This document shows, in pieces, positions 7,244 to 48,511 of a stretch of 64,000 nt of DNA (within the stretch, counting starts at the first letter, position 1; each line of letters opens with the position of its first letter). Position numbers and translations under genes: made by a program. The notes beneath the pieces were generated by a model, which had not been told where the DNA came from, did not search any database, and saw only the letters and a list, made by a program, of their open reading frames with translations. The stretch comes from Gemmatimonadales bacterium (GTDB lineage: Bacteria; Gemmatimonadota; Gemmatimonadetes; Gemmatimonadales; GWC2-71-9): contig JBGASX010000012.1 in the NCBI GenBank assembly GCA_044229445.1, positions 4,671-68,670 of the forward strand. The letters are read 5' to 3'.

Positions 7244-8686
7244 TCAGTCGCAGGTCCCCTGGTTGAGGTAGGTGCAGGTCGGACGGTGATGGTGGGTGCT
7301 GCACGTCGACTGCTTGAGGTCGCTGGTCACATGGCAGGTGGCGCACACGTTGTTCGCACCCTGATGCCGGGCACTGAACATCGAGTGGTACTGGGTCGGC
7401 AGCGTGACGCCCGCGTCCCAGGCCACCGTATTGCTGGAGCCGGAGTGGCAGGTGATGCAGGTCTGCGGCCAGTTGTACTGCGTGTGGCTCGGGTTCGCCG
7501 CACTGGTGTAGTCCGCCAGATGGCACACCTGGCAGGTGGTAAGCGTCCCCTGGGTCCCCTTGTAGACACCATTGGTGTGGCACTTGTCGCAGGCCGTCGT
7601 GATGTGCGTGCCGGTAAGCTGGAACGCAGTGGTGCTGTGCTTGAACGTCGACGGGACCCACGCGTTCGTGTTGTGACAGTTCGTGCACGTCGTGACGAAG
7701 CTCGGCAGCGTGTGGGCCGGGTTGGGGACGGGCGCGCCGTTGGTGCCGTTGTAGTCCTTCTGGTGACAGCTGAAGCAGTCGGTCGGCTTGCCCTTGTAGA
7801 CGCCGTCCGCATGGCACTGGACGCAGTTCAGCGCCTGGTGGCCACCCGTCAGCGGGAACTGGCCCTTCGAGTGATCGAAGGCGGCATTCCAGTCCGAGGT
7901 GTTGTGGCAGAGCACGCAGTCCGTGCTGAAACCGCTCGAGCTGTGCGGCGGAGTCGCCGTCGCGTTGTACTTGTCCAGGTGACAGCTCACGCACGTTGTG
8001 CCGAGTGGCGTCTGGAAGTTCGAATTCTTGTGACACTGGTCGCAGGCCGTTCGGGCATGCACCCCCGTCAGCGGGAAGCCCGACGCGTCATGATTGAATC
8101 GCGCCGTCGTCCACGCGGTCACGCTGTGACACTGGGTGCAATCCTGCGGGAAGTTGTTCTGGAGGTGGTCGGGCGCCTTCGCGGCCAGATAGTTCGGCCG
8201 GTGGCAGCTGATGCAGTCGGCCGCCCGGGCGACGAACTGCAGATGCCCCTGTTCGGTCGGGGCGTGGCACGCCGTGCAGTCCGTCGCGAGGTGGGCACCC
8301 TCCAGCGGGAACCGGGTCAGCTGGTGGGCCCGGGTCATCCGCCCGCGGTCGATGAAGCTGCGGGTGGTATGACACTGGACGCAATCGGCGCCCAGTTCGC
8401 CCCGGTGCGCATCCTCATGGCAGGAGGCGCAGGTGCTCGGCGTGCCCTTGAAGTCGAGGGACTGGTGACAGGCGCGGCAGGCCGCGGTCGTGTGCGCGCC
8501 GATGAGGGAGAAACCGAACTTGTTGTGATCGAACGACCGGCTGATCGTCACGTGGGTCCACCCTTCCGAGCGGTGGCACGCGATGCAGTCGACCTTCAGC
8601 TCGCCATGCGGGGAGCGGGTGCGCTCCTGGGCCGCGAGGGGCCCCGCGAGGAGCAGGGCGAGGCCAACGAGGATCAGTCGCTTCAT
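7244..8686 (-). CDS. periplasmic multihaem c-type cytochrome, 17 CXXCH motifs
   Basis: 480-aa ORF with signal peptide MKRLILVGLALLLAGPLAAQ. I count 17 CXXCH, arranged in repeated modules of the form F-x-H-x(3-4)-F-x-L-x-G-x-H-x(4)-C-x-x-C-H. The start overlaps the upstream stop (ATGA at 8683-8686). Confidence 0.9.
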   Translation of the reverse strand: MKRLILVGLALLLAGPLAAQERTRSPHGELKVDCIACHRSEGWTHVTISRSFDHNKFGFSLIGAHTTAACRACHQSLDFKGTPSTCASCHEDAHRGELGADCVQCHTTRSFIDRGRMTRAHQLTRFPLEGAHLATDCTACHAPTEQGHLQFVARAADCISCHRPNYLAAKAPDHLQNNFPQDCTQCHSVTAWTTARFNHDASGFPLTGVHARTACDQCHKNSNFQTPLGTTCVSCHLDKYNATATPPHSSSGFSTDCVLCHNTSDWNAAFDHSKGQFPLTGGHQALNCVQCHADGVYKGKPTDCFSCHQKDYNGTNGAPVPNPAHTLPSFVTTCTNCHNTNAWVPSTFKHSTTAFQLTGTHITTACDKCHTNGVYKGTQGTLTTCQVCHLADYTSAANPSHTQYNWPQTCITCHSGSSNTVAWDAGVTLPTQYHSMFSARHQGANNVCATCHVTSDLKQSTCSTHHHRPTCTYLNQGTCD

Positions 8687-36348: not shown

Positions 36349-38631
36349 GTGCGCCGTCCCGTTCTGCTGCTGCTCGCCGCCGCCACGCTGCTCGCCTCCG
36401 CGCCAGCCTCGGCCCAGGTTCCCGATTCCTCGCTCCTCTCGGTCGCTCGGATCTACGGGTCGGCCGAGTTCCGCTCCGAATCCTTCGGCCCGGCCCGCTG
36501 GCTGGCGAAGGGTGCGGCCTACACGACCCTCGAACCATCGGCCGAGCGGAAGGGCAGCCAGGACCTGGTGCGCTACGACACTCAGTCAGGCGCCCGGACG
36601 ATTCTGGTCGCCGCCAGGCGCCTGATCCCCGCCCGCGATACCGCGCCGCTGACCGTCGAGGACTACCGCTGGTCCGATGATGAGCGGCAGCTCCTGATCT
36701 TCACCAACTCGAAGCCGGTCTGGCGCCAGAATACCCGGGGCGACTACTGGGTCCTCGATCTCCGCACCTGGCGTCTGCGGAAGCTGGGTGGCCTCCGCGC
36801 CAAGCCGTCGACGCTGATGTTCGCCAAGTTCTCGCCTGACGGCCGGCGCGTCGGCTATGTGCGCGAGCACAACCTCTTCGTCGAGGACCTCGCCACCGGG
36901 CGGATCACGCAGCTCACCCGGGACGGCACTCGCACGGTCATCAACGGCACCTTCGACTGGGTGTACGAGGAGGAACTCGGCGATCGCGATGGCTGGCGCT
37001 GGAGTCCGGACGGGCGGACGATCGCCTTCTGGCAGCTCGACGCCGACAAGGTTCGCGACTTCATCCTGCTCAACGACACCGATTCCCTCTATCCGCAGGT
37101 CAACCGGATCCAGTACCCCAAGGCCGGCGAGGCGAACTCCGCCGCCCGGGTCGGCGTGGTGCCGGCGATCGGCGGGAAGGTGACCTGGTTCGCGATTCCG
37201 GGCGATCCCCGCAATAACTACCTCGCCCGCATGGAGTGGGCCGCCTCGAGTGATGAGGTGATCATCCAGCACCTCAACCGGCTGCAGGACACGAACACCG
37301 TCTATCTCGGCGAGCGGAAGACCGGGGCGGTGCGGCCGGTGCTCGTCGAATCGGACAGCGCCTGGGTGGATGTGGTGGATGCGACGCCGTGGGTGGCCGG
37401 CGGCACGAGCTTTATCTGGCAGAGCGAGCGCGACGGCTGGCGCCACATCTACAGCGTGTCGCGCGATGGCGCCAGGGTCCGGCTGCTGACGCCCGGTGCG
37501 TTCGACGTGGCCTCGGTGGCCGCCGTCGACGACGCGGGAGGCTGGCTCTACTACGTGGCCTCGCCTGACAATCCCGCGCAGCGCTATCTCTACCGGGTGC
37601 GACTGGACGGCACCGGCGCCGCCGAGCGGGTCACCCCGGCCGATCAGCCGGGCACCCACGGGTACAACATCGCCCCCGATGCGAAGGTGGCCTTCCATAC
37701 CTGGTCCCGCTTCGATGCCCCCCCGGTCACCGAGCTGATCCGCCTTCCGGAGCACTCCTCGGCGCGGACGCTGGTGGCGAACACGACGCTCAAGGCACGG
37801 GTCGCCGCCCTTCGCCGTGGACCCGTGGAGTTCTTCGCCGTGGATGTCGGGGATGGAGTGAAGCTCAACGGCTGGGTCATGAAGCCGGCCGACTTCAACC
37901 CCTCGCGCAAGTATCCCCTGTTCTTTACCAACTACGGAGGGCCCGGCTCGCAGACGGTGCTCGACAGCTGGGGCGGGTCAGGCTATCTCTGGAACCTGCT
38001 GCTCACCCAGAAGGGCTACCTGGTGGCGAGCGTCGACAATCGCGGGACGGGGATGCGCGGCCGAGCCTGGCGGAAGATCGTGTACCGGCGCCTAGGCGTC
38101 ATCGAGACGCAGGATCAGGCCAACGCGGCGCGGGCGATGGGGCGCTGGAGTTACGTCGACTCCACCCGAATCGGTGTCTTCGGCTGGAGCTACGGAGGCT
38201 TCATGAGTCTCAACGGCCTCTTCCAGGCGCCGGACGTCTACCGCATGGCCATCGCCGTCGCACCGGTCACCCACTGGAAGTTCTACGACAACATCTATAC
38301 CGAACGGTACAACGGGCTGCCACAGGACAACTCCGAGGGATACGACAAGGGGTCGCCGCTCAGCTACGTGGACCAGATGAAGGGCCGTCTCCTCCTGGTG
38401 CACGGGACGGGGGATGACAACGTGCACTACCAGAACACCGAGGCCCTGCAGAATGCGCTCGTGAAGGCGGGCAAGTCGTATGACTTCATGAGCTATCCGA
38501 ACCGGAACCACGGGATTTTCGGGGGCAACACCACCCTGCATCTGCGGGAGATGCTGACGCGCTTCGTCGACGAGACCCTCGGTCCGCCGCTGGTCCTGCC
38601 GCACACGGAACCCGCGCCACTCACCAACTGA
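36349..38631 (+). CDS. dipeptidyl-peptidase IV-type S9B serine peptidase
   Basis: 760-aa ORF with a signal peptide, a DPP-IV N-terminal beta-propeller-like region (FDWVYEEE) and a C-terminal hydrolase with GWSYGG plus a GTGDDNVH...NH triad context. Confidence 0.9.
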   Translation: MRRPVLLLLAAATLLASAPASAQVPDSSLLSVARIYGSAEFRSESFGPARWLAKGAAYTTLEPSAERKGSQDLVRYDTQSGARTILVAARRLIPARDTAPLTVEDYRWSDDERQLLIFTNSKPVWRQNTRGDYWVLDLRTWRLRKLGGLRAKPSTLMFAKFSPDGRRVGYVREHNLFVEDLATGRITQLTRDGTRTVINGTFDWVYEEELGDRDGWRWSPDGRTIAFWQLDADKVRDFILLNDTDSLYPQVNRIQYPKAGEANSAARVGVVPAIGGKVTWFAIPGDPRNNYLARMEWAASSDEVIIQHLNRLQDTNTVYLGERKTGAVRPVLVESDSAWVDVVDATPWVAGGTSFIWQSERDGWRHIYSVSRDGARVRLLTPGAFDVASVAAVDDAGGWLYYVASPDNPAQRYLYRVRLDGTGAAERVTPADQPGTHGYNIAPDAKVAFHTWSRFDAPPVTELIRLPEHSSARTLVANTTLKARVAALRRGPVEFFAVDVGDGVKLNGWVMKPADFNPSRKYPLFFTNYGGPGSQTVLDSWGGSGYLWNLLLTQKGYLVASVDNRGTGMRGRAWRKIVYRRLGVIETQDQANAARAMGRWSYVDSTRIGVFGWSYGGFMSLNGLFQAPDVYRMAIAVAPVTHWKFYDNIYTERYNGLPQDNSEGYDKGSPLSYVDQMKGRLLLVHGTGDDNVHYQNTEALQNALVKAGKSYDFMSYPNRNHGIFGGNTTLHLREMLTRFVDETLGPPLVLPHTEPAPLTN

Positions 38632-40484
38632 TGGCCGATCCGGTTCTCGACGCGCTTGCCCCGCTGCTGGCGGGCACCTACACGATCGAGCGGGAGCTTG
38701 GTCGTGGCGGGATGGGCGTCGTGTACCTCGCGCGCGAGATCCGGCTCGACCGGCTCGTCGCCATCAAGGTCCTGCCCCCGCACCTGGCGGGCGACGCCAC
38801 GGTGCGGGAGCGCTTCCTCCGCGAGGCGCGCACGGCGGCCCAGCTCTCTCATCCGCACATCGTTCCCATCTACCGTGCGGAGGAGGTCGGCGGCTTCGCC
38901 TACTTCGCGATGGCGTTCATCGAAGGAGAGAACCTGTCGGAGCGGGTGCGCGACCGCGGACCCCTGCCGGCCGTGGACGTCGTCCGCTGGCTCCGCGAGT
39001 CGGCGTGGGCGCTGGCCTATGCCCATGCGCGGGGCGTGGTGCATCGCGACATCAAGGCCGCCAACATCATGCTCGAGCGCGGCTCGGGCCGGGCCGTGCT
39101 CACCGATTTCGGGATCGCCCGCGACGGCAGTGCCTCCTCGCTGACCCAGGCAGGCGAAGTCGTCGGCACGGTCTACTACATGAGCCCGGAGCAGGCCAAC
39201 GGCCACACTCTCGATGGCCGGAGCGACCTCTACTCGCTCGGAGTCGTCGGCTTTCAGGCGCTGAGTGGCCGGCTCCCCTTCGAAGGGGAAAATCCCGCAT
39301 CCGTGCTGCTTGCGGTGGCGGCCCGTGAGGCTCCGTCTCTCGCGGCCGTCGCCCCCCGGGTCCCGCGCCCGCTGGTCGAGGTCATCGACCGCTGCCTCCG
39401 CAAGGATCCCTCGGACCGCTACGCCACCGGCGAGGAACTCGCCGAGGCGCTGGGGCAGGCGCTGGAACGGAGCCGCACCTCGGTCGTGGCGTCGGGGAGC
39501 GACCGGGTGATCCCCGAGGAGCAGGCCCAGGCGATCTGGCTCCGCGCGGCCCAGTTGCAGGCGGATGCCGCCACCCGCGTCGAGCAGCGCTCCCGCGAGC
39601 GGACCGGCCTCACCGGAGTCACCACCGCGCTCGCGACCGGCGGGTACCTGCTCCGCGACGTCGAAGCCGCCGCCCAGGAAGTCGGCATCAATCCGGAGTT
39701 CGTGGCGCTGGCGCTCGCCGAGCAGACGGGCCCGCGCGATCGCAGCGTCGCCCCCGTCGCCGGCGAGCGGAAGGAGCGTGCGTTCACGACGCTGCTCGGG
39801 ACCAGCGCGAGAAGTCTCTCGGTTTCCCGCGTCATCCGGGGCGCGCCCAAGGCCATTCTCGAGGCGATCGGCCGAGTGCTGCCGACGCGGCCCTACCTGC
39901 TCACGTTCAAGGACACGGTCGGCGGGCATCCGCTGGATGGCGGGGTGCTCGTCTTCAGCGTTCCCAACATGATGCGCGGGATGGGCATGGGCGCAGGCTC
40001 CGCGGAGCACTACACCACGTTCACCTACCGGATGTATCAGCTCGAGCTCTTCCAGCTCAACGTCACGCTGCGCCCTGTGCAGGGGCAGACAGGCGGCGCG
40101 TGCGAGGTGACGGTGTATGGTGATCTTCGCCCCGGCATGCACAAGAATCTCGCGGCCAACAAGTGGATTGCGTCGCTCCTCGCGACCGGCGCCGGGGCCG
40201 CGAGCGTGGCCGGGGGCGTCGCACTCGCGCAGGGCGGCTTGGCCGTGCTGCCGGCTCTGGCGGTGGCCGGATTGCTGGGTGGAGGGAGTCTGCTCTGGTA
40301 TCGCTGGCTCTACCGCCACGCACTCCAGAAGAGCACCGAGGAGCTCGAGGGGATGCTCGAGGCCCTGGAGACCCATCTCCGATCGCAGCAGCTGTTCGGT
40401 GCGCCTCCTCCACCGCCGCAGACCCCGCCGAGACGTCCGCCGGATGATGGCGGAATCGGCGGCGTGATCGCCGCCATCGGGTGA
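38631..40484 (+). CDS. serine/threonine protein kinase with C-terminal membrane segments
   Basis: 617-aa ORF with GRGGMGVVY, AIKVL, HRDIKAANIML, DFGIA and YMSPEQ, plus hydrophobic helices near the C-terminus. Confidence 0.9.
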   Translation: MADPVLDALAPLLAGTYTIERELGRGGMGVVYLAREIRLDRLVAIKVLPPHLAGDATVRERFLREARTAAQLSHPHIVPIYRAEEVGGFAYFAMAFIEGENLSERVRDRGPLPAVDVVRWLRESAWALAYAHARGVVHRDIKAANIMLERGSGRAVLTDFGIARDGSASSLTQAGEVVGTVYYMSPEQANGHTLDGRSDLYSLGVVGFQALSGRLPFEGENPASVLLAVAAREAPSLAAVAPRVPRPLVEVIDRCLRKDPSDRYATGEELAEALGQALERSRTSVVASGSDRVIPEEQAQAIWLRAAQLQADAATRVEQRSRERTGLTGVTTALATGGYLLRDVEAAAQEVGINPEFVALALAEQTGPRDRSVAPVAGERKERAFTTLLGTSARSLSVSRVIRGAPKAILEAIGRVLPTRPYLLTFKDTVGGHPLDGGVLVFSVPNMMRGMGMGAGSAEHYTTFTYRMYQLELFQLNVTLRPVQGQTGGACEVTVYGDLRPGMHKNLAANKWIASLLATGAGAASVAGGVALAQGGLAVLPALAVAGLLGGGSLLWYRWLYRHALQKSTEELEGMLEALETHLRSQQLFGAPPPPPQTPPRRPPDDGGIGGVIAAIG

Positions 40485-40577: not shown

Positions 40578-40793
40578 ATGACCTACGAGCAGATTGTGGC
40601 CGCGCTGGGTTACGCTGCCAGCAGTGAGCGCGCGGTCCGGATCGTCACCACCGGAGGTCAGGAGGTCGTCGGTGTCCCAACGAGTGTGGACACCCACGTG
40701 ACCGCCCATGAGGTCTACCTCCAGCCGCCCGGAGACGATGAAACCGAGATCGCCCTGAGTCTCGGTACCATTCGCGAGGTCGAGCTGTTGTAG
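40578..40793 (+). CDS. small hypothetical protein
   Basis: 71-aa ORF preceded by GGAGG. No domain recognised. Confidence 0.4.
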   Translation: MTYEQIVAALGYAASSERAVRIVTTGGQEVVGVPTSVDTHVTAHEVYLQPPGDDETEIALSLGTIREVELL

Positions 40794-40801
40794 ATTCCTT
40801 C

Positions 40802-41467
40802 ATGGTCTCTCTGCTCGATATCATCGGCCCCGTCATGGTGGGCCCCTCGTCCTCACATACCGCGGGTGCCTGCCGGATCGGGCTGTTCGCCCGGAACCTG
40901 GTGGGCGGACAGCCCACCTCCGCCAAGATCGAACTGCACGGCTCATTCGCCCGAACGGGGAGCGGTCACGGCACCGACCGGGCGATCGTCGGCGGGCTCC
41001 TCGGCTTCCTGCCCGATGATGAACGGCTCCGCGAAAGCCTCGAGCTCGCGGAGAAGGCCGGCCTTGAATTCAGCTTCGTGAACAGCAAACTGCGTGGAGA
41101 GCACCACCCGAACACCACCCGGATCAGTCTGCGCCAGGGCGATCAGGAGGCCGTCGTGACCGGTTCCTCCATCGGCGCGGGCCGGATCGTGATCACCGAG
41201 ATCGACGGCTTTCCCGTCGAGGTGACCGGTGCCTTCCCCACGCTGGTCTTCGTCGCCAAGGACGTGCCCGGCATTATCTCGGCCGTCAGTACCGCACTGG
41301 CCCGCCAGGGCGACAACATCGCGACCATGAAGGTCTCCCGTCGGCAGAAGGGCGGGAGTGCCATTCACATCTACGAACTGGACCACGTGGCGAACCCCGA
41401 AGCGATGGACGAAATCCGTGCGATCTCCGCCGTGAGCATGATCCGCTCGATTCCGAGGATCGCCTGA
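40802..41467 (+). CDS. sdaAB: L-serine dehydratase, iron-sulfur-dependent, beta subunit
   Basis: 221-aa ORF with the N-terminus SLLDIIGPVMVGPSSSHTAGACRIG and an ACT-like C-terminal part. Confidence 0.9.
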   Translation: MVSLLDIIGPVMVGPSSSHTAGACRIGLFARNLVGGQPTSAKIELHGSFARTGSGHGTDRAIVGGLLGFLPDDERLRESLELAEKAGLEFSFVNSKLRGEHHPNTTRISLRQGDQEAVVTGSSIGAGRIVITEIDGFPVEVTGAFPTLVFVAKDVPGIISAVSTALARQGDNIATMKVSRRQKGGSAIHIYELDHVANPEAMDEIRAISAVSMIRSIPRIA

Positions 41468-42348
41468 TGTTCCAGTCACTGGGCGAGGCGGTCGAACAGG
41501 CGGAAGCGCAGGGGCTCAGTCTCGGCGAGCTCGCCCTGCGAACCGAGGTCGAGAGCGGACTCAAGACCCGGCCCGAGATCGAGGCCGCGCTGCAGCGGGC
41601 ACTGGATGTGATGCGGCACGCGGTGGCCCGGGGACTTCCGGGGGACCTCAAGAGCGTGAGCGGACTTGTGGGCGGCGACGCCGCGAGGATGACGAAAGGC
41701 GCGGGACCGCTCGCCGGCACGGTGTTCACGGAGGTCATCGCCTCGGCGCTGGCGGTGCAGGAGGTGAACGCAGCCATGGGTGTCATCGTTGCGGCACCGA
41801 CGGCTGGAGGGGCTGGAGTGCTCCCGGGCGTGCTGCTCGGTCTTGCCCGACATCGTCCCACGACCGATGATCAGCTGGTGCGCGCGCTGGCGACGGCGGG
41901 TCTTGTGGGCGCGGTGGTTGCCGTGCGCGCCTCGCTCTCCGGCGCCGAGGGCGGCTGTCAGGCGGAAACGGGTGCTGCAGCCGGGATGGCTGCTGCCGCG
42001 GGTGTGGAACTGCTTGGCGGCTCACCGACCGAGGCGGCGCATGCGGTCGCGCTTACGATGCAGGGGACCCTCGGGCTGGTGTGCGATCCGCTGGGTGGAC
42101 TGGTCGAGGTCCCCTGCGTCTACCGCAACGCCACAGGCGGGGCGATGGCCCTCGCCGGGATCGAGATGGCTCTGGCCGGCATCCGTTTCCCGATTCCGGT
42201 CGACGAAGTCATCGACACCATGGGAGAGATCGGGCGCTCCATGGATGTGCGTTACCGTGAGACCGCCGGCGGTGGGCTGGCGGCCACTCCGACGGGTCGG
42301 AAACTCGCCAAGGAGCGTCTGGTCCAGCTCAAGGGCAAGCGCCAGTAG
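41467..42348 (+). CDS. sdaAA: L-serine dehydratase, iron-sulfur-dependent, alpha subunit
   Basis: 293-aa ORF overlapping the sdaAB stop. Contains SLSGAEGGCQAE and LGLVCDPLGGLVEVPC. Confidence 0.9.
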   Translation: MFQSLGEAVEQAEAQGLSLGELALRTEVESGLKTRPEIEAALQRALDVMRHAVARGLPGDLKSVSGLVGGDAARMTKGAGPLAGTVFTEVIASALAVQEVNAAMGVIVAAPTAGGAGVLPGVLLGLARHRPTTDDQLVRALATAGLVGAVVAVRASLSGAEGGCQAETGAAAGMAAAAGVELLGGSPTEAAHAVALTMQGTLGLVCDPLGGLVEVPCVYRNATGGAMALAGIEMALAGIRFPIPVDEVIDTMGEIGRSMDVRYRETAGGGLAATPTGRKLAKERLVQLKGKRQ

Positions 42349-42524
42349 TTCGGGGCATCAGCCCCGGCTCCCGCGCTCAACCCCTGATTCGGTGGAAGGT
42401 TGCCGGGAACCCAGGCTTGAACGATCCACCCTGAAACATCCTGAAACATCCCCCCGTACGGCAGCAACGCCGCCCCGGGCCGGGGCGGAACATCAGGAAC
42501 ACGACGCACCATCTCGAGGGGCCA

Positions 42525-42803
42525 ATGGACGGTCCGACGATCCCGCTGTCGATCTTCTTCATCATGGGCGGTCTGGTGCTGATTGCCCGGAGTCAGATCG
42601 GCGCCGCCATCGCGCACGCGATCCGGGTGAATGCGACGGATGTGGATGAGGAAGGCTTGACGCTGCTCGGACAGGAACTCGGGGAGGTCAAGCGCGAACT
42701 GGAAGCGGTCCGCCACGAGCTTGCGGAAACCCAAGAGCGGCTCGACTTCACCGAGCGCCTGCTCGCCGCGGGCCGGGAGCCCGAACCTCGGCTGAGGCCC
42801 TGA
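42525..42803 (+). CDS. LDFTERLL-motif small membrane protein, paralog 1 of 12
   Basis: 92 aa. TM helix LSIFFIMGGLVLIA. C-terminus ETQERLDFTERLLAAG. Confidence 0.65.
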   Translation: MDGPTIPLSIFFIMGGLVLIARSQIGAAIAHAIRVNATDVDEEGLTLLGQELGEVKRELEAVRHELAETQERLDFTERLLAAGREPEPRLRP

Positions 42804-42804
42804 G

Positions 42805-43131
42805 ATGACCATGATGCAGACGGCCGCTGGTGGCGGCCCGCCGGTCGGTGTACTGATCGTTGCGATCCTGGGCTCGATTCCGATCATGGGCATCGTTGCG
42901 TGGACGGCGGTCAAGATTCTGGGGCCGGTCGGCCAGGCGTTCGCCCACCGCATCGGCGGCGGCAGCGAGAGCCATCCGCTGCTCGAGCAACGGGTGGACC
43001 AGCTGAGTGAGGAACTCGACCAGGTCCGCGCGCAGCTCGCGGAAACGCACGAGCGCCTGGAGTTCGCCGAGCGGCTCCTCGCGCAGGGGCGGACGCCGGA
43101 CCAGCTCTCGGCCGGACTGGATCATGAATAA
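42805..43131 (+). CDS. LDFTERLL-motif small membrane protein, paralog 2 of 12
   Basis: 108 aa. TM helix VGVLIVAILGSIPIMGIVAW. Juxtamembrane GPVGQAFAHRIGGG. C-terminus ETHERLEFAERLLAQG. Confidence 0.65.
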   Translation: MTMMQTAAGGGPPVGVLIVAILGSIPIMGIVAWTAVKILGPVGQAFAHRIGGGSESHPLLEQRVDQLSEELDQVRAQLAETHERLEFAERLLAQGRTPDQLSAGLDHE

Positions 43132-43396
43132 TTCGGAAGCGCTGGTCGCCATCGCGGGAATGGTGGCTGGCGTGCTGGTCACCTGGGGGCTCGCCTGGGG
43201 CATCATCCGGGGGATCCGGGAATGGCGCGCTGGCGGACTGCCGGACCGGGCGCTCGACGGTGAATTGGGGGCGCTCCGGGACCAGATGGAGCAGATGCAG
43301 CAGCAGCTGATCGAGGCGCACGAGCGGATCGACTTCACCGAACGGCTGCTCTCGCAGTCCAGGGCGCCCGAGGCCCTGTCCAAGGGCGAACCGTGA
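43124..43396 (+). CDS. LDFTERLL-motif small membrane protein, paralog 3 of 12
   Basis: Start at the ATG at 43124, inside track ORF 43007..43396, giving an 8-nt overlap with paralog 2. TM helix ALVAIAGMVAGVLVTWGLAWGII. C-terminus EAHERIDFTERLLSQS. Confidence 0.65.
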   Translation: MNNSEALVAIAGMVAGVLVTWGLAWGIIRGIREWRAGGLPDRALDGELGALRDQMEQMQQQLIEAHERIDFTERLLSQSRAPEALSKGEP

Positions 43397-43656
43397 GCGA
43401 CGCCGAGGTCATCGTCTCGCTCGGCGGGATGCTCACGACGATTGTCGGGACGATTGCCATCTCGTGGGCGGTGGTGCAGGGGATTCGGATCAGGGCGCAG
43501 GGGAAGGTGGGGCCCTCCGACACCGCCCGCGCCGTGGCGGACCTGGAAGAGCGGGTCGACCAGTTGCAGCAGCAGCTCATCGAGGCTCACGAGCGGATCG
43601 ACTTCACGGAGCGGCTGCTGACGCGCGGCCGGGACTCTAACGAGGGCGGCGCCTGA
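43393..43656 (+). CDS. LDFTERLL-motif small membrane protein, paralog 4 of 12
   Basis: 87 aa. The GTG start overlaps the previous stop (GTGA). TM helix VIVSLGGMLTTIVGTIAISWAVV. C-terminus EAHERIDFTERLLTRG. Confidence 0.65.
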   Translation: MSDAEVIVSLGGMLTTIVGTIAISWAVVQGIRIRAQGKVGPSDTARAVADLEERVDQLQQQLIEAHERIDFTERLLTRGRDSNEGGA

Positions 43657-43657
43657 C

Positions 43658-43915
43658 ATGGATATCGAAGGCATACTCGCGATCGTTCTGATCTTCGGTG
43701 GTGGCACCGCGATCGCGATCTCGTTCAGTCCGATCGGCCGGGCCATTGCGGAGCGGATTCGCGGTGCCCTGCCGGAGCCGGGTACGGACCCGGTGGTCTA
43801 CGAGGAACTGGAGCGGATGCGCGGCGAGATGGCGGAGCTGCAGGAGCGGGTCGACTTCACCGAACGGCTGCTTGCCAAGTCGCGCGACGTGGAACAGCTC
43901 CCTGGAGGCAAGTGA
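43658..43915 (+). CDS. LDFTERLL-motif small membrane protein, paralog 5 of 12
   Basis: 85 aa. TM helix ILAIVLIFGGGTAIAISF. Juxtamembrane SPIGRAIAERIRGA. C-terminus ELQERVDFTERLLAKS. Confidence 0.7.
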   Translation: MDIEGILAIVLIFGGGTAIAISFSPIGRAIAERIRGALPEPGTDPVVYEELERMRGEMAELQERVDFTERLLAKSRDVEQLPGGK

Positions 43916-44169
43916 TGGAAGGCTCACTGTTCATCATCATCGTGTTTGGCGGCGGGATGCTGTTCGCGCTGTCCAAGACGGAGCTCGGCCGCGCGCTCGC
44001 GGATCGTATTCGCGGCGGCGCCGCCCCGGCGGCACCGGATCCCGCCCTGCTGGAGGAGATCGACCGCCTGCGGGCCGACGTGGCAGAGCTGCAGGAGCGG
44101 GTGGATTTCACCGAGCGGCTGCTGGCGCGCCAGCGAGAGGCACCGGAAATCGGTGGTACCCGCGAGTGA
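43912..44169 (+). CDS. LDFTERLL-motif small membrane protein, paralog 6 of 12
   Basis: 85 aa. The start overlaps the previous stop. TM helix LFIIIVFGGGMLFAL. Juxtamembrane LGRALADRIRGG. C-terminus ELQERVDFTERLLARQ. Confidence 0.7.
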   Translation: MMEGSLFIIIVFGGGMLFALSKTELGRALADRIRGGAAPAAPDPALLEEIDRLRADVAELQERVDFTERLLARQREAPEIGGTRE

Positions 44170-44432
44170 ATGCGGACCAGCACTTCGCGTTGATCATGGT
44201 CGTCATCTTCGGCGTGGTGATGCCGGGGATGCTGGCCATCGGGATTCCGGCGGGGAAGGCGTGGGCCCGGCGTCTCGAGCGGATGGGCCACCAGGAGGAT
44301 GGTGGCGAGACGGCCGCGGAGCTCCAGGAACTCCGTGCCCGGGTCGCGGAGCTCGAGGAACGGCTCGACTTCACCGAGCGCGTCCTTGCCTCACACCGGG
44401 AATCGAATCAGCTCGGTGCCGGTGATGGATGA
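44166..44432 (+). CDS. LDFTERLL-motif small membrane protein, paralog 7 of 12
   Basis: Start at the GTG at 44166 (GTGA overlap), in the frame of track ORF 43698..44432. TM helix FALIMVVIFGVVMPGMLAIGI. Juxtamembrane AWARRLERM. C-terminus ELEERLDFTERVLASH. Confidence 0.6.
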   Translation: MNADQHFALIMVVIFGVVMPGMLAIGIPAGKAWARRLERMGHQEDGGETAAELQELRARVAELEERLDFTERVLASHRESNQLGAGDG

Positions 44433-44462
44433 CCCTCGTGCTCTCAGCGTGAGAGGCTGACC

Positions 44463-44822
44463 ATGCTGACTCAGGTCGTCGTGCAGGGACCGCCGGAGAT
44501 TCCGCCGATCCCGCAGATTCCGATCCTGCCGCCATGGATGACGCTGCCCCCATGGGTGACGGCCCTGGTCGCGCTGGGGTTCTTCGCCGGGTGCGCGATC
44601 GTGCTCTATCCGCTGATGCGCGCGATCGGGCGGAGGCTCGAGGGCCGGACCGCCAGCCCTGACCCCATGCTTCGCGAGGAGATCGAGCGACTGAACGCGC
44701 GCCTCAATGAGTTGGACGGATTGCAGCACCATGTGGCGGAGCTGGAAGAGCGACTCGACTTCGCCGAGCGTCTGCTGGCGCAGCGCCGTGAACCGGACCG
44801 GCTCGGAGGCGGACGGGTGTGA
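44463..44822 (+). CDS. LDFTERLL-motif small membrane protein, paralog 8 of 12
   Basis: 119 aa with a Pro-rich N-terminus. TM helix WVTALVALGFFAGCAIVLY. Juxtamembrane MRAIGRRLEGR. C-terminus ELEERLDFAERLLAQR. An internal ATG at 44538 is an alternative start. Confidence 0.65.
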   Translation: MLTQVVVQGPPEIPPIPQIPILPPWMTLPPWVTALVALGFFAGCAIVLYPLMRAIGRRLEGRTASPDPMLREEIERLNARLNELDGLQHHVAELEERLDFAERLLAQRREPDRLGGGRV

Positions 44823-45190
44823 ACATCAAGCGCTTTCTGGGTATCGACGGCTTCGACTTCTTCATCCAGTTCGGCATCACCTGCATGCTGATGGTGGTCG
44901 CCAGCAGCGCGGCAACTGGCGGGCGGGACGAAGTGCCGATCGCGGTGATTGTGGCGGCCTCGCTGGGGGTGCTGGCCTGGCGCCGCAACCGGGCGATGAA
45001 GCGGATGGGCTCCGACACCGGGGAAGTGCAGCTCGACCGGCTCCAGGAGCTGGAGCAGCGGGTCGCCGAGCTCGAATTCCATCAGGAGCGGGTGCTGGAG
45101 CTGGAAGAGCGCCTGGACTTCACGGAGCGGCTGCTGACCCAGCAACGAGAGGTGGTCCGCCAGCTCGGCCTGCCCCGCGAGGAGGTCTGA
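44819..45190 (+). CDS. LDFTERLL-motif small membrane protein, paralog 9 of 12 (two hydrophobic segments)
   Basis: 123 aa. The GTG start overlaps the previous stop. Hydrophobic segments FFIQFGITCMLMVVASSAA and IAVIVAASLGVLAW. C-terminus ELEERLDFTERLLTQQ. Confidence 0.6.
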   Translation: MNIKRFLGIDGFDFFIQFGITCMLMVVASSAATGGRDEVPIAVIVAASLGVLAWRRNRAMKRMGSDTGEVQLDRLQELEQRVAELEFHQERVLELEERLDFTERLLTQQREVVRQLGLPREEV

Positions 45191-45471
45191 TGGATCCGGA
45201 GCAAGTGCTGGTTGCCGGCATGATGCTCGCCGTGATGGTGCTCATCGGCAAGGTCGTGATTCCGATCGCCAATGCGTATGCGCGGCGGGTTGAAGCGAAG
45301 GGAGACGGGCTGGACGAGCGCAGGGGATTGGCAGAGCTCGAGGCCAGAGTGCATGAGCTGGAGCTCCGTGAGGCGCGGGTGGCGGAACTGGAGGAACGGC
45401 TCGACTTCACCGAACGACTGATCGCCCAGCAGCGGGATGGCGGCCGTCTGGGGGCGGGGGAGCAGCGATGA
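45190..45471 (+). CDS. LDFTERLL-motif small membrane protein, paralog 10 of 12
   Basis: Start at the ATG at 45190 (TGATG overlap), in the frame of track ORF 44707..45471. TM helix VLVAGMMLAVMVLIGKVVIPI. Juxtamembrane ANAYARRVEAKG. C-terminus ELEERLDFTERLIAQQ. Confidence 0.65.
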   Translation: MDPEQVLVAGMMLAVMVLIGKVVIPIANAYARRVEAKGDGLDERRGLAELEARVHELELREARVAELEERLDFTERLIAQQRDGGRLGAGEQR

Positions 45472-45800
45472 TCATCTATCTGGGGCTGGCTGAGGTCTCG
45501 CCTGAGCAGGTGAAGGTGCTCGGCATCGTGGCCGTGATGGTGACGGCGTTCGCGGCCGCCCTCCTCTCGCCCATCGCGCGAGCGTACGCCCGACGACTGG
45601 AGGGGCGGGCGCCGGCGGAAACCCTGCGCCAGGAACTGGCGGAGATCAACGCCCGTCTCGATGAGCTCCAGCAGGGGCAGGCGCGGATGCTCGAGCTGGA
45701 GGAACGGCTCGACTTCGCCGAACGGCTGCTGATCAGCGGGCGGCAGACGAGCGCGACCGAGGCGGACACGCCCCCGGAGCCGGTGGACGCGGCCCGGTAA
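45468..45800 (+). CDS. LDFTERLL-motif small membrane protein, paralog 11 of 12
   Basis: 110 aa. The start overlaps the previous stop. TM helix VLGIVAVMVTAFAAALL. Juxtamembrane SPIARAYARRLEGR. C-terminus ELEERLDFAERLLISG. Confidence 0.65.
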   Translation: MIIYLGLAEVSPEQVKVLGIVAVMVTAFAAALLSPIARAYARRLEGRAPAETLRQELAEINARLDELQQGQARMLELEERLDFAERLLISGRQTSATEADTPPEPVDAAR

Positions 45801-45806
45801 CGACCG

Positions 45807-46022
45807 ATGCAGACCGTCGTCATCGTGCTGCTGCTGGGGGCGGGTGCCACGGCCTCGTGGGGACTCTTCATGGGTCCGATCGGCAAGGCGGTGGCGCGAT
45901 GGATCGAGGCGAGGACGCCCCAGGCCCACGGGCAGCTCATGGCCGACCTTGCGGAGCTCGAGGGACGGGTGACCCGGATGGAGCGGTTGCTCAGGGAAAC
46001 TTCACGGCCCGGACGGCGGTAG
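45807..46022 (+). CDS. degenerate member of the small membrane protein array, paralog 12 of 12
   Basis: 71 aa. TM helix VVIVLLLGAGATASWGLFMG. The juxtamembrane PIGKAVARWIEAR is conserved. The C-terminal motif is reduced to LEGRVTRMERLLRET. Confidence 0.5.
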   Translation: MQTVVIVLLLGAGATASWGLFMGPIGKAVARWIEARTPQAHGQLMADLAELEGRVTRMERLLRETSRPGRR

Positions 46023-46107: not shown

Positions 46108-46500
46108 ATGGTAGGCAAGGAAGATATCGAGGGCTATATCGACCGGCTCGACAGCGGCTCTGCCGAAGTCGAAGAGATCGAGGCCGGTGTCTGGATGGTG
46201 CGCACGACGGCGGGGGCCGAGGTGCTGGTGCAGTACGCGCCGCCGGTCGTGATCCTCCGGGTGGCGGTGATGCCGCTGCCCTCGGGCGCCGAGCGGCAGA
46301 CCGAGCTCTGCCGGCAGCTCCTGTCGTACAACGCGAGTGAACTGGTCCACGGCGCCTACGGACTCGAGGGCGACCGGGTGGTCCTGGTGGATACGCTGGA
46401 ACTGCAGAACCTGGATTTCAACGAGTTCGAGGCGAGCTTCGATTCCCTGACGCTCGCGCTGGCCACGCACCTCGGCGCCCTGGCGCCGTACCGGGAGTAA
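46108..46500 (+). CDS. YbjN-like / secretion-chaperone-like small acidic protein
   Basis: 130-aa acidic ORF preceded by GGAGA. The alpha/beta pattern (IEGYIDRL...GVWMV...VLVQY...VVILRV...ELCRQLLSYNASELVHGAYGLEGDRVVLVDTLE) resembles the YbjN / type III chaperone-like fold family. This is a by-eye call. Its stop lies 2 nt before pspA. Confidence 0.45.
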   Translation: MVGKEDIEGYIDRLDSGSAEVEEIEAGVWMVRTTAGAEVLVQYAPPVVILRVAVMPLPSGAERQTELCRQLLSYNASELVHGAYGLEGDRVVLVDTLELQNLDFNEFEASFDSLTLALATHLGALAPYRE

Positions 46501-46502
46501 GC

Positions 46503-47264
46503 ATGGGGATCTTTGACCGTTTCTCGACGTTGCTCCGGTCGAACATCAACGACCTCATCTCCCGGGCGGAAAATCCCGAGAAGATGCTCAATCAGCTCAT
46601 CGCGGACATGAAGGGGCAGCTGGCCAAGGCGAAGCAGCAGGTCGCCTCCGCGATCGCCGATGAGAAGAAGCTGCAGGCCGACGCCGAGGCCATGAAGAAG
46701 CAGGCCGAGGACTGGGAGCGGCGCGCGATGCTCGCGGTGCAGGAGGGCCGGGACGATCTCGCCAAGCAGGCCCTCATGCGCTTCAACGAGGCGATGCAGG
46801 GGGCCCAGCAGCTGCACGAGACCTGGGTGAAGCACAAGGCCGAGACCGAAAACCTCAAGGGCTCGCTGCGCCAGCTCAACGACAAGATCGAAGAGGCGAA
46901 GCGCAAGAAGAACATTCTCATCGCCCGGGCCCGCCGCGCGGAGGCGCAGCAGCGGATCCAGGAGACGATGTCCGGAATGTCCGACAAGTCGGCCTTCGAG
47001 TCGTTCGAGCGGATGACGGAGAAGATCGAGAACCAGGAGCGGAAGGCCATCGCCGCCGCCGAACTCCAGAACGAGTTCGAGGGCGACAACCTGCTGCAGC
47101 AGTTCCAGGCGCTCGAGTACAAGGGAGCCCCAGACCAGCAACTGCTCGAACTGAAGGCCAAGATGGGGATGCTCGGTCCCGGCGGTGGCGGGGCGAAGCA
47201 GATCGGCAAGGGCGGCGATACCGTCGATGCCGAAGTGGTCGATGATGACGACGAGAAGAAGTGA
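46503..47264 (+). CDS. pspA: PspA/IM30 family protein
   Basis: 253-aa ORF with the N-terminus MGIFDRFSTLLRSNINDLISRAENPEKMLNQLIADM, typical of PspA/Vipp1. Coiled-coil composition throughout, with an acidic tail. Confidence 0.92.
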   Translation: MGIFDRFSTLLRSNINDLISRAENPEKMLNQLIADMKGQLAKAKQQVASAIADEKKLQADAEAMKKQAEDWERRAMLAVQEGRDDLAKQALMRFNEAMQGAQQLHETWVKHKAETENLKGSLRQLNDKIEEAKRKKNILIARARRAEAQQRIQETMSGMSDKSAFESFERMTEKIENQERKAIAAAELQNEFEGDNLLQQFQALEYKGAPDQQLLELKAKMGMLGPGGGGAKQIGKGGDTVDAEVVDDDDEKK

Positions 47265-47287: not shown

Positions 47288-47330
47288 GAGGGGGTGGGCT
47301 CCGGCAGCGGGGCTCACCCCCTCCGCTTTT
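47288..47330 (+). terminator. rho-independent-type terminator after pspA
   Basis: GAGGGGGTG...CACCCCCTC stem followed by CGCTTTTCC. Confidence 0.6.
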
Positions 47331-47425
47331 CCGCACGACTCGCTAGCTTGTCTGTCGCCCGGGAGGAGGGTCCGGGGGCCCGGACGCCGTTCACTCCCCA
47401 ACTCTGACACTTCACGCCCAAATCC

Positions 47426-48511
47426 ATGCACGGCTCGCGCTTCCTGATTCTGGCCGACGGCGAATTCAATCCGCTGACCTCCAAGACGGCGAACTCGGTC
47501 ATCCGGTACCTTCCCGAGCGCATCGTGGCGGTGGTGGATCGCGTCCACGCCGGCAAGACCGTGCAGGAGGTCCTGGGCTTTGGCGGCGCGATCCCCGTCG
47601 TCGGCAGCATGGCCGAAGGGCTCGCGCGCCGGCCGGATGCGGTGCTGATCGGCATCGCGCCGGTCGGAGGCCGGCTCCCGGAGGAGTGGCGCCAGTGGCT
47701 GCTCGCGGCGATCGATGCCGGCTGCCATCTCTGGAGCGGGCTGCACACCTTCCTCGCCGACGATCCGCTCCTCGCCGAGCGTGCCCGGCTGAAGGGCGTC
47801 GACATTCACGACCTGCGCCGCCCTCCCGCCGATCTTCCGGTATCGTCCGGGAAGGCGAAGGCGGTCGACCCCTTCGTCATCCTCACCGTGGGCACCGACT
47901 GCAACGTCGGCAAGATGACGAGTCAGCTCCAGATCACGAAGCACCTCAACGCGCGCGGCCTGCGCACCCGCTTCGTCGCCACGGGGCAGACCGGCATCAT
48001 GATCGAGGGCTGGGGCATCGCCGTCGACGCCGTCGTCGCCGACTTCATCGCGGGTGCGGCCGAGTGGCTGGTGCTGGAGGGCAGCAAGGACGCCGATATC
48101 GTGCTGGTCGAGGGACAGGGGAGTCTCAATCACCCGGGCTACTCCGGCGTGACCTGTGGACTGCTCCATGGCTCCTGTCCCGATGCGCTGATCCTCTGCC
48201 ATCAGGCGACGCGTGAGTACATCGGAGACTACCGGAAGGCCTCCTGGCTCAGGATCCCGCCGCTGAGCGAGTACGTGCGCCTGTACGAGACCGTCGCCGG
48301 TTTCGTGCATCCGACGAAGACCATCGGCATCTCCCTCAACACCTACGATCTGAGCGAGGCTGATGCGAAGGCGGCGATCGCCGCCGCCGAGAAGGAGACC
48401 GGACTCCCGTGCACCGACCCGGTGCGGTTCGATCCTGCGCCGCTCGTCGACGCCGTGGCGCGGGCCCGCGATGCCTATCGTGCCGCGCGAAGCACGCGGC
48501 CGACCGACTGA
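47426..48511 (+). CDS. DUF1611-family protein
   Basis: 361-aa ORF with ILADGEFNPLTSKTA, IGIAPVGGRLPEEW, VGTDCNVGKMT and VATGQTGIMIEG, an ordering I recognise from DUF1611 proteins. Confidence 0.65.
   Translation: MHGSRFLILADGEFNPLTSKTANSVIRYLPERIVAVVDRVHAGKTVQEVLGFGGAIPVVGSMAEGLARRPDAVLIGIAPVGGRLPEEWRQWLLAAIDAGCHLWSGLHTFLADDPLLAERARLKGVDIHDLRRPPADLPVSSGKAKAVDPFVILTVGTDCNVGKMTSQLQITKHLNARGLRTRFVATGQTGIMIEGWGIAVDAVVADFIAGAAEWLVLEGSKDADIVLVEGQGSLNHPGYSGVTCGLLHGSCPDALILCHQATREYIGDYRKASWLRIPPLSEYVRLYETVAGFVHPTKTIGISLNTYDLSEADAKAAIAAAEKETGLPCTDPVRFDPAPLVDAVARARDAYRAARSTRPTD

Follow-up and report, generated by a model that had tools for sequence, protein, structure and literature searches.

Ordered arrays of small membrane proteins linked to pspA in Gemmatimonadota: candidate membrane partners of PspA

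A family of small, predicted single-pass membrane proteins is encoded in multi-copy arrays directly upstream of pspA in Gemmatimonadota. We describe it from a stretch of 64,000 nucleotides of a Gemmatimonadales genome (contig JBGASX010000012.1, positions 4,671 to 68,670; assembly GCA_044229445.1), hereafter the window, in which 12 paralogous open reading frames (ORFs) of 71–123 aa lie on the same strand at 42525–46022 (+), between sdaAA and a CesT/Tir-like gene that precedes pspA. The genomic linkage between array and pspA is strict in both directions. On balance we think that the paralogs are N-out/C-in membrane partners of PspA, PspB-like but not demonstrably homologous to PspB, probably hetero-oligomeric, and encoded in an envelope-stress operon; we hold this reading with moderate confidence. 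PspA, IM30 and Vipp1 are bacterial relatives of the ESCRT-III proteins, and the membrane targeting and control of PspA are understood in few model organisms, via PspB and PspC, LiaI, and PspM. The array family is apparently undescribed, and literature searches with motif strings, and with PspA combined with Gemmatimonadetes, Gemmatimonadota or Gemmatimonas, found nothing relevant.

The linkage was examined from both sides. With two sets of queries, a family hidden Markov model and the proteins encoded next to the array in the window, we analysed 58 arrays with at least 2 kb of downstream sequence. All 53 multi-copy arrays (3–14 copies, mode 7) are directly followed by pspA, and the remaining five of the 58 are solitary copies. 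A CesT-like gene also follows 43 of the 53 multi-copy arrays; the ten arrays that lack it keep both the tail motif described below and pspA. In the reverse test the window's PspA was compared with metagenome contigs, and at least one family copy is present upstream of pspA in 51/51 loci with at least 900 nt of upstream sequence, 50 of which also have the CesT-like gene. Complete arrays in these metagenomic loci contain 2–9 copies, though their PspA proteins are 75–93% identical to that of the window. A first-pass annotation of the window, made by a model from the letters alone, had placed the motif beside pspA, and this co-occurrence extends to related genomes in both the array set and the PspA-clade loci.

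The identities that the first-pass annotation gave to the neighbouring genes also stand. Upstream are sdaAB and sdaAA (the latter at 41467–42348), the gene called 'ybjN-like' belongs to the clan of PF22550, and the gene downstream of it encodes a PspA of the PF04012 family, which scores against TIGR02977 with an E-value of 3.6e-41, under the equivalog cutoff of that model. Precomputed Pfam matches in five independent contigs give the order sdaAB, sdaAA, an array of 8 or 12 copies, CesT_Tir_1, PspA_IM30 and DUF1611. The sdaAA link is lineage-specific, because sdaAA is the upstream neighbour of only 29/72 arrays.

The coordinates of the 12 ORFs agree exactly with those first described and are listed in the table. 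The copies are closely packed: seven of the 11 junctions in the window are overlaps (8, 4, 4, 4, 4, 1 and 4 nt) and the others are gaps of 1, 1, 30 and 6 nt, matching the overlapping and abutting starts and stops of the earlier description. Of the 483 junctions in all arrays, 289 overlap or abut, and in another 151 the gap is 1–20 nt. A recurring DNA core had been noticed 11 times; a degenerate pattern derived from the tail, GARCGNVTNGANTTYRCNGARCGNNT, likewise has 11 matches, all on the + strand and all within the array, at a spacing of 251–390 nt, and no match is expected by chance (100 shuffles).

Features of the array locus. Positions are those of the window; dN/dS (ratio of non-synonymous to synonymous substitution) is against the syntenic array of related locus L001.
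Feature	Position	Strand	Description
ECF-sigma-type promoter-like motif	42432..42458	+	TGAAACATCCTGAAACATCCCCCCGTA; -35 TGAAACA, N16, -10 CGTA; 67 nt before first start codon
Copy 1	42525..42803	+	92 aa; subfamily E; dN/dS 0.28
Copy 2	42805..43131	+	108 aa; subfamily M; dN/dS 0.15
Copy 3	43124..43396	+	90 aa from ATG 43124; subfamily J; 8-nt overlap with end of copy 2; dN/dS 0.34
Copy 4	43393..43656	+	87 aa; GTG start in GTGA overlap; subfamily J; dN/dS 0.15
Copy 5	43658..43915	+	85 aa; subfamily A; dN/dS 0.06
Copy 6	43912..44169	+	85 aa; subfamily A; dN/dS 0.16
Copy 7	44166..44432	+	88 aa; subfamily P; dN/dS 0.09
Copy 8	44463..44822	+	119 aa; subfamily B; dN/dS 0.18
Copy 9	44819..45190	+	123 aa; subfamily C; dN/dS 0.20
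Copy 10	45190..45471	+	93 aa; ATG in TGATG overlap; subfamily L; dN/dS 0.15
Copy 11	45468..45800	+	110 aa; subfamily L; dN/dS 0.42
Copy 12	45807..46022	+	71 aa; subfamily V; terminal variant, degenerate tail RMERLL; dN/dS 0.07
CesT/Tir-like (YbjN-clan) chaperone-like gene	46108..46500	+	130 aa; PF22550 CesT_Tir_1, E 5.4e-26
pspA, PspA/IM30 (bacterial ESCRT-III-like)	46503..47264	+	253 aa; PF04012 PspA_IM30, E 3e-49
Terminator-like element	47288..47332	+	16-bp G+C-rich hairpin (47288–47323) then CGCTTTTCC; region z-score -2.88

Overlapping ORFs are abundant on both strands of the array region, as in any sequence with a G+C content of 68%, and the 12 ORFs might on that ground be spurious products of a repetitive high-GC DNA element. 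The dN/dS values of all 12 copies lie between 0.06 and 0.42 against the L001 array, and between 0.06 and 0.57 against the more distant L002. The copies are genuine genes under purifying selection, because synonymous changes far outnumber non-synonymous changes in each of them, and the doubt that the first-pass annotation had left about their translation is answered by copies that all evolve as coding sequence. Thousands of homologs keep the frame, the motif and the gene order, and the repeat is conserved at the protein level, not at the DNA level. These three observations refute the spurious-ORF explanation, to which we give practically no weight; long antisense ORFs, which the region also has, are to be expected at 68% G+C.

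Each copy has one hydrophobic 19-mer near the N-terminus (mean Kyte-Doolittle value 1.85–2.65), in agreement with the N-terminal hydrophobic helix described earlier, and copy 9 may have two. The flank N-terminal to this segment contains no lysine or arginine in 11/12 copies, while the 15 residues after the transmembrane (TM) helix contain one to four. Applying the positive-inside rule to this distribution, an N-out/C-in topology is predicted, which would place the C-terminal tail in the cytoplasm, the compartment of PspA. Copy 8 carries a proline-rich N-terminal extension of 33 residues, which is predicted to be periplasmic. An AlphaFold2 model of copy 5 based on an alignment of 139 sequences (predicted local distance difference test score, pLDDT, 90.5) contains a TM helix at residues 3–23, a short helix at 25–34 over a basic motif, a loop, and a long helix at 45–79 that includes the tail.

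The 12 copies are clearly paralogous, as had been proposed, and their alignment has invariant positions G15, E68, R72, E77 and R78. The near-invariant tail reported at first pass is present in 11/12 copies as E-E-R-[LV]-D-F-[AT]-E-R-L-L (ERLDFTERLL in the alignment), copy 12 having only RMERLL. Among 566 family members from 83 loci the tail reads E66 (95%), R67 (98%), [LV], D69 (89%), F70 (97%), [AT], E72 (97%), R73 (98%), [LM] and L75 (94%). The same members have a central glycine-rich patch in the TM helix and a juxtamembrane consensus of P-[ILV]-G-[RK]-A-x-A-R-R-I-x-G. A basic juxtamembrane motif had been ascribed to every copy in the window, and this is borne out for about half of them: P-I-G-R-A-x-A-R-R-I-x-G is clear in copies 5, 7, 8, 10, 11 and 12 but looser in copies 1, 2 and 6, and in copies 3, 4 and 9 it is replaced by other basic sequences.

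Ahead of the tail, hydrophobic residues recur every three to four positions, as in heptads, and by our own reading of the sequence the invariant phenylalanine and the penultimate leucine lie off this stripe. The invariant charged and aromatic residues shared by the tails of all paralogs would point to one common protein partner and not to generic coiled-coil packing.

The family is large. A profile of the 12 copies retrieves over 6793 protein clusters when sequences are grouped at 90% identity and, at E ≤ 0.001, 3205 representatives when they are grouped at 50%. Source databases annotate the members as 'hypothetical' or as 'PilO', the latter being a misannotation. Every organism name attached to the homologs is Gemmatimonadota or Gemmatimonadales. 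A scan of one genome per GTDB species gave 404 confirmed matches, and the best 80 of these, from which our loci were taken, are all from Gemmatimonadota.

Arrays from different genomes are related copy by copy. When the window is paired with 20 other arrays, the reciprocal best hits run largely collinear, and orthologs are 60–92% identical, compared with 22–46% for paralogs within the window. Clustering of all copies reveals recurrent ordered patterns of subfamilies, such as E-D-A-B-I-K-H-G and E-J-J-A-A-B-N-C-C-L. Of the paralog types, subfamily A (copies 5 and 6) is conserved best and occurs in 71/77 arrays, subfamily B (copy 8) occurs in 52/77, and the ortholog of copy 1 takes the first position in most related arrays. 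Copy 12 is 65–90% identical to the last copy of related arrays and is thus a conserved subfamily despite its degenerate tail. The collinear order, the excess of ortholog over paralog identity and the conserved terminal copy together indicate that the duplications are old and that the paralogs are individually maintained, which fits specialised subunits better than a recent amplification.

Scans of the copies against Pfam, NCBIfam, PADLOC and PHROGs found no family at or near any cutoff. The matches that did appear are scattered coiled-coil noise (WD40_alt, DUF5798, PspB, MtrG, SlyX and DUF6752), among which DUF6752 weakly matches 12/139 members in the Pfam scan (best E 2.4e-05). SHOCT (PF09851) and DUF1707 gave no match to copies 1–10 at E ≤ 1 or to copies 11 and 12 at E ≤ 0.01, and are outside the 25 top weak families for the 139 members; the same holds for TatA/B (PF02416). 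A Foldseek search of the PDB with the copy 5 model found no match. The best hit of a sequence-profile search of the PDB is a weak match to full-length KcsA (inner helix and C-terminal four-helix bundle; E 0.0076–0.03), followed by weak matches to bacterial Nav channels. The first-pass annotation had recognised no named family in the copies, and we too obtained no confident match in Pfam, NCBIfam, PADLOC, PHROGs, PDB sequences or PDB folds. We also considered that the tail could mimic a PspA helix (FERM-type motif) or the CesT-like protein; hhalign found nothing, and this idea was rejected.

The KcsA and Nav matches raise the possibility that the paralogs oligomerise into a channel or pore, along the lines of TatA, a holin or the KcsA TM helix with its C-terminal bundle, and that PspA seals the leak or regulates it. 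A TM helix followed by an amphipathic helix indeed resembles TatA. TatA and TatB have a short periplasmic N-terminus, a TM helix, a hinge, a basic amphipathic helix and an acidic tail, and form oligomers of variable size; TatA is also reported to interact with PspA. The layout of the array proteins is similar, but their conserved C-terminal motif has no Tat counterpart. The KcsA and Nav E-values are not significant, no TatA/B, holin or channel family was found in Pfam, NCBIfam or PHROGs, and there is no fold match. A pore is therefore, in our estimation, very improbable.

We hypothesise that the locus is a single operon that would comprise an extracytoplasmic function (ECF)-type promoter, the genes of the 12 small bitopic membrane proteins, those of the CesT/Tir-like protein and PspA, and a terminator. 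The paralogs would be co-transcribed and translationally coupled with pspA from an envelope-stress promoter. Each protein would insert N-out/C-in: the glycine-rich TM helix would span the membrane, the basic amphipathic helix would lie along the inner leaflet, and the heptad helix would extend into the cytoplasm with the tail at its end. The paralogs may then co-assemble, by packing of the TM helices and by the coiled coil in the cytoplasm, into a platform embedded in the membrane. It would display many copies of the tail to the cytoplasm, as an anchor, sensor or nucleation site for the PspA polymer, and the CesT-like protein may assist in assembly. Such a role is the job of PspB and PspC in proteobacteria, LiaI in Bacillus and PspM in mycobacteria. 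We infer direct PspA binding, hetero-oligomerisation, topology, ECF-sigma dependence and stress induction from the features described here. The 'multi-subunit module' of the first-pass annotation would likewise follow from the conserved order of the paralogs and their genomic linkage.

A more specific form of this proposal is offered tentatively, as a possibility that we do not go so far as to favour. In Gemmatimonadota a platform of 2–14 diverged single-pass coiled-coil paralogs may nucleate or anchor the ESCRT-III-like PspA through a shared ERxDFxERLL docking helix, with different paralogs tuning the site of polymer formation or the kind of membrane defect that elicits it. If this is true, the platform would be a functional bacterial counterpart of the eukaryotic ESCRT-III nucleators.

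Several observations weigh against the proposal that the paralogs are PspB-like partners of PspA. Homology to PspB is not demonstrable, since hhalign gives a probability of 19.9% over 17 columns, with a narrow PspB profile that contains near-identical enterobacterial sequences only, and matches to PF06667 are no more frequent than matches to unrelated coiled-coil families. When the family profile was compared with that of PspA or of the CesT-like protein, no match emerged. An AlphaFold2 model of P0001, a fused pair of an A-type and a B-type copy, has a predicted template modelling score (pTM) of 0.33, and its units are not confidently docked. A phmmer search with an E. coli RpoE query found no ECF sigma gene in the window and one weak match across 170 loci. 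Copy number varies from 2 to 14 among close PspA relatives, which fits a complex of fixed stoichiometry poorly. Five solitary copies are found away from any pspA, so some members may act independently. The restriction to Gemmatimonadota is not proven, since it is based on the best 80 of 404 matches.

Some of these points would suit proteins that share the pspA promoter but are otherwise independent of PspA. In this explanation the paralogs are co-regulated membrane fillers or stabilisers that act on the bilayer through the TM helix and the basic amphipathic helix and do not bind PspA. The solitary copies, the highly variable copy number and the lack of a docking signal in the fused pair all agree with it. 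However, the ERxDFxER core is 97–98% conserved in 566 copies and looks like a specific protein-binding site, not a lipid-interacting one. The linkage to pspA (53/53 and 51/51) also speaks against independent action, as does a lineage without CesT-like genes, in which a minimal module of promoter, one copy and pspA suggests pairing. We consider independent stabilisers unlikely.

Among known PspA partners PspB is the nearest in architecture and context. PspB consists of an N-terminal TM helix that serves as an anchor and then a cytoplasmic alpha-helical region, and duplicates within the operon are known (PMC11237479). Like PspB, the array proteins are about 75–120 aa long, are encoded beside pspA, and have an N-terminal TM helix and a cytoplasmic helix, although their topology is predicted. 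There is also weak similarity in the same register over an ER[IV]xxxExxL helix. TIGR02976 (PspB) matches copies 5, 6 and 8 in this register with E-values of 0.026–0.92, the best score being 14.8 bits against a cutoff of 51.7, and PF06667 (PspB) matches 14/139 members (best E 0.0034), all below threshold. The hhalign alignment pairs ELExxRxRVAELEERLD with EAKRMRERIQALESILD.

These matches, together with the common length, layout and pspA adjacency, could mean that the family is a true but highly divergent PspB, amplified in Gemmatimonadota, that binds PspA and releases it upon membrane stress; PspA used as a coiled-coil control gives no such match. Against this, the scores are far under the curated cutoffs, the hhalign match is short and marginal, and unrelated coiled-coil families score similarly. 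The annotated 20-kb neighbourhoods contain no PspC (PF04024) or PspF-type gene, and no sigma-54 element is found upstream of the array. Unlike PspB, which is present in one or two copies and is mostly proteobacterial, the array family has 2–14 diverged paralogs per operon, possesses a distinct invariant tail and a basic juxtamembrane helix, and is seen here only in Gemmatimonadota. We regard a divergent PspB as rather unlikely, and the sequence comparisons lead us not to file the family as PspB because the scores are far below threshold and PspC, PspF and sigma-54 are missing from the locus.

LiaI and PspM are other small membrane proteins encoded beside a pspA homolog; they are co-induced with it and are thought to tether or regulate PspA (PMC11237479). 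The LiaI-LiaF-TM domain has four TM helices, and PspM has two and is confined to mycobacteria and corynebacteria (PMC11237479). The array proteins differ in having one TM helix and a long cytoplasmic coiled coil and in being multi-paralogous, and have no sequence relationship to either. LiaI-LiaF-TM was rejected as an identity for the family, whose copies have a single hydrophobic segment each (copy 9 may have two) and no Pfam match, as was PspM of M. tuberculosis, the family being single-TM and from Gemmatimonadota. The resemblance to PspB or LiaI suggested at first pass thus survives for the architecture and context of PspB; homology to PspB is not demonstrable, and LiaI fails on architecture.

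The CesT/Tir-like gene and pspA form a dyad of a known type. PF22550 lies immediately upstream of PF04012 on the same strand, 2 nt apart, a pair that Ravi et al. 2024 (PMC11237479) describe as a core neighbourhood that is conserved. The published contexts of the dyad include genes for band-7/flotillin proteins, AAA+ ATPases, spermine synthase or ATP-grasp proteins (PMC11237479), without any array of single-TM coiled-coil proteins, and the paper contains no mention of Gemmatimonadota. Related dyads are of the E. coli YjfI-YjfJ type and include the bac cluster of P. aeruginosa (PA3732-PA3731), which has been linked to biofilm formation (PMC2587700, PMC10948618).

The presence of the CesT-like gene after 43/53 arrays, and the fact that CesT-type proteins bind peptides of their partners (Ravi et al. 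2024, PMC11237479), allow a further explanation. The array proteins could be clients of the CesT/Tir-like chaperone, their C-terminal helix being a chaperone-binding region that keeps them competent for insertion, while PspA only buffers the membrane stress of insertion. The ten arrays without a CesT-like gene nevertheless retain motif and pspA, and the CesT/Tir-PspA dyad is widespread without the array family (PMC11237479). We consider it quite improbable that the proteins are chaperone clients.

The proposal of an envelope-stress operon draws on the sequence that precedes the first copy. In B. subtilis, pspA (ydjF) is part of the sigma-W regulon. Aligning the region upstream of the first copy in 15 related loci revealed a conserved block, which in the window has a single match to TGAAAC-N15-18-CGTA in 64 kb (0.07 expected). 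GAAAC-N17-CGTA occurs within 300 nt upstream of 59/73 arrays, compared with seven matches elsewhere in 1.95 Mb on both strands, and the T before and the A after GAAAC are near-invariant across loci. The block has the features of ECF promoters, namely a -35 element GAAC/GAAAC and a -10 element CGT[AC] 16–17 nt apart and upstream of an operon. We read it as a putative ECF-sigma-type promoter because its elements equal the -35 TGAAAC and -10 CGTA of B. subtilis sigma-W promoters (PMC5758882); ECF dependence and stress induction would follow from this likeness. The spacing in the array motif is 16–17 nt. It differs from the sigma-W system in coming from another phylum, in the lack of a nearby gene for a cognate sigma factor in the array loci, and in the extra GAAAC/GTTTC half-sites of many loci.

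In the window motif a second GAAAC lies one helical turn downstream of the first, and many of the related loci (L001–L089) have a second GAAAC 10 bp downstream and, about 10 bp upstream of the -35 element, a GTTTC in inverted orientation. The extra GAAAC and GTTTC elements are possible half-sites for an additional DNA-binding regulator over the promoter. In the lineage without CesT-like genes (L026, L050, L057, L072, L076 and L089; 4–6 copies) the motif is absent before the first copy, and GGAAAC-N17-CGTA is found just before the last copy and pspA, for example at 8535–8560 of L026. This lineage appears from its motif positions to have a minimal unit of promoter, copy and pspA. In the window a consensus scan found no sigma-70 promoter upstream of the array, and no sigma-54-like -24/-12 match is present in 42349–42524.

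The likely 3' end of the operon is a hairpin 24 nt past the pspA stop codon, followed by the T-run CGCTTTTCC; this run is short, and the element was missed by a simple terminator scan. No comparable structure lies in the 85 nt that separate the array from the CesT-like gene (z -0.37), and Rfam and tRNA scans of the window gave no matches.

If the proposed partnership with PspA is correct, the array family would be a fourth, unrelated-looking family of PspA partners. It is very large, with thousands of sequence clusters, and in the data seen it is confined to one poorly studied phylum. It is also unusual to find a family as an ordered set of many diverged paralogs, all with one invariant cytoplasmic motif in common. 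The tail motif would be a mutable handle on recruitment of the PspA polymer, and the promoter motif a handle on the envelope-stress regulon of Gemmatimonadota. Neither Pfam nor NCBIfam has a model of the family, and defining the family would improve the annotation of every Gemmatimonadota genome.

Solitary copies with a full ERLDFAERLL tail occur in L022, L045, L047 and L051, and also in L035 (3304–3573) and L088 (3305–3571). In the last two the solitary copy is located just 3' of a 962-aa uvrA-like ORF, about 4 kb upstream of the main array.

Some public gene calls (P0001, P0002, P0241, P0242 and P0262) contain two or three family units per chain, some with stretches that look out of frame. 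They are probably artefacts of stop-codon readthrough or frameshift, because in a genuine fusion the second unit would have the opposite topology. P0243 (3151 aa) was rejected as a family member; it is an unrelated repetitive coiled-coil protein whose score is a sum over repeats.

The gene after pspA at 47426–48511 (+) encodes a DUF1611/DgcN-like N-acetyltransferase (NF041892, E 3.6e-84, below the equivalog cutoff), a gene for which follows pspA in most of the related loci. Since the terminator-like hairpin precedes it, the gene is probably transcribed separately. Upstream of the sda genes, a 71-aa ORF at 40578–40793 (+) has no match in Pfam, NCBIfam, PADLOC or PHROGs. A gene of equal length lies just upstream of sdaAB in L002, L003, L004 and L007, and by this comparison the ORF appears to be a conserved small protein. 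A Ser/Thr protein kinase (PF00069) is encoded at 38631–40484 (+); its C-terminal part includes a hydrophobic segment rich in Gly/Ala, its tail is proline-rich, and a kinase takes the same upstream position in L001 and L003.

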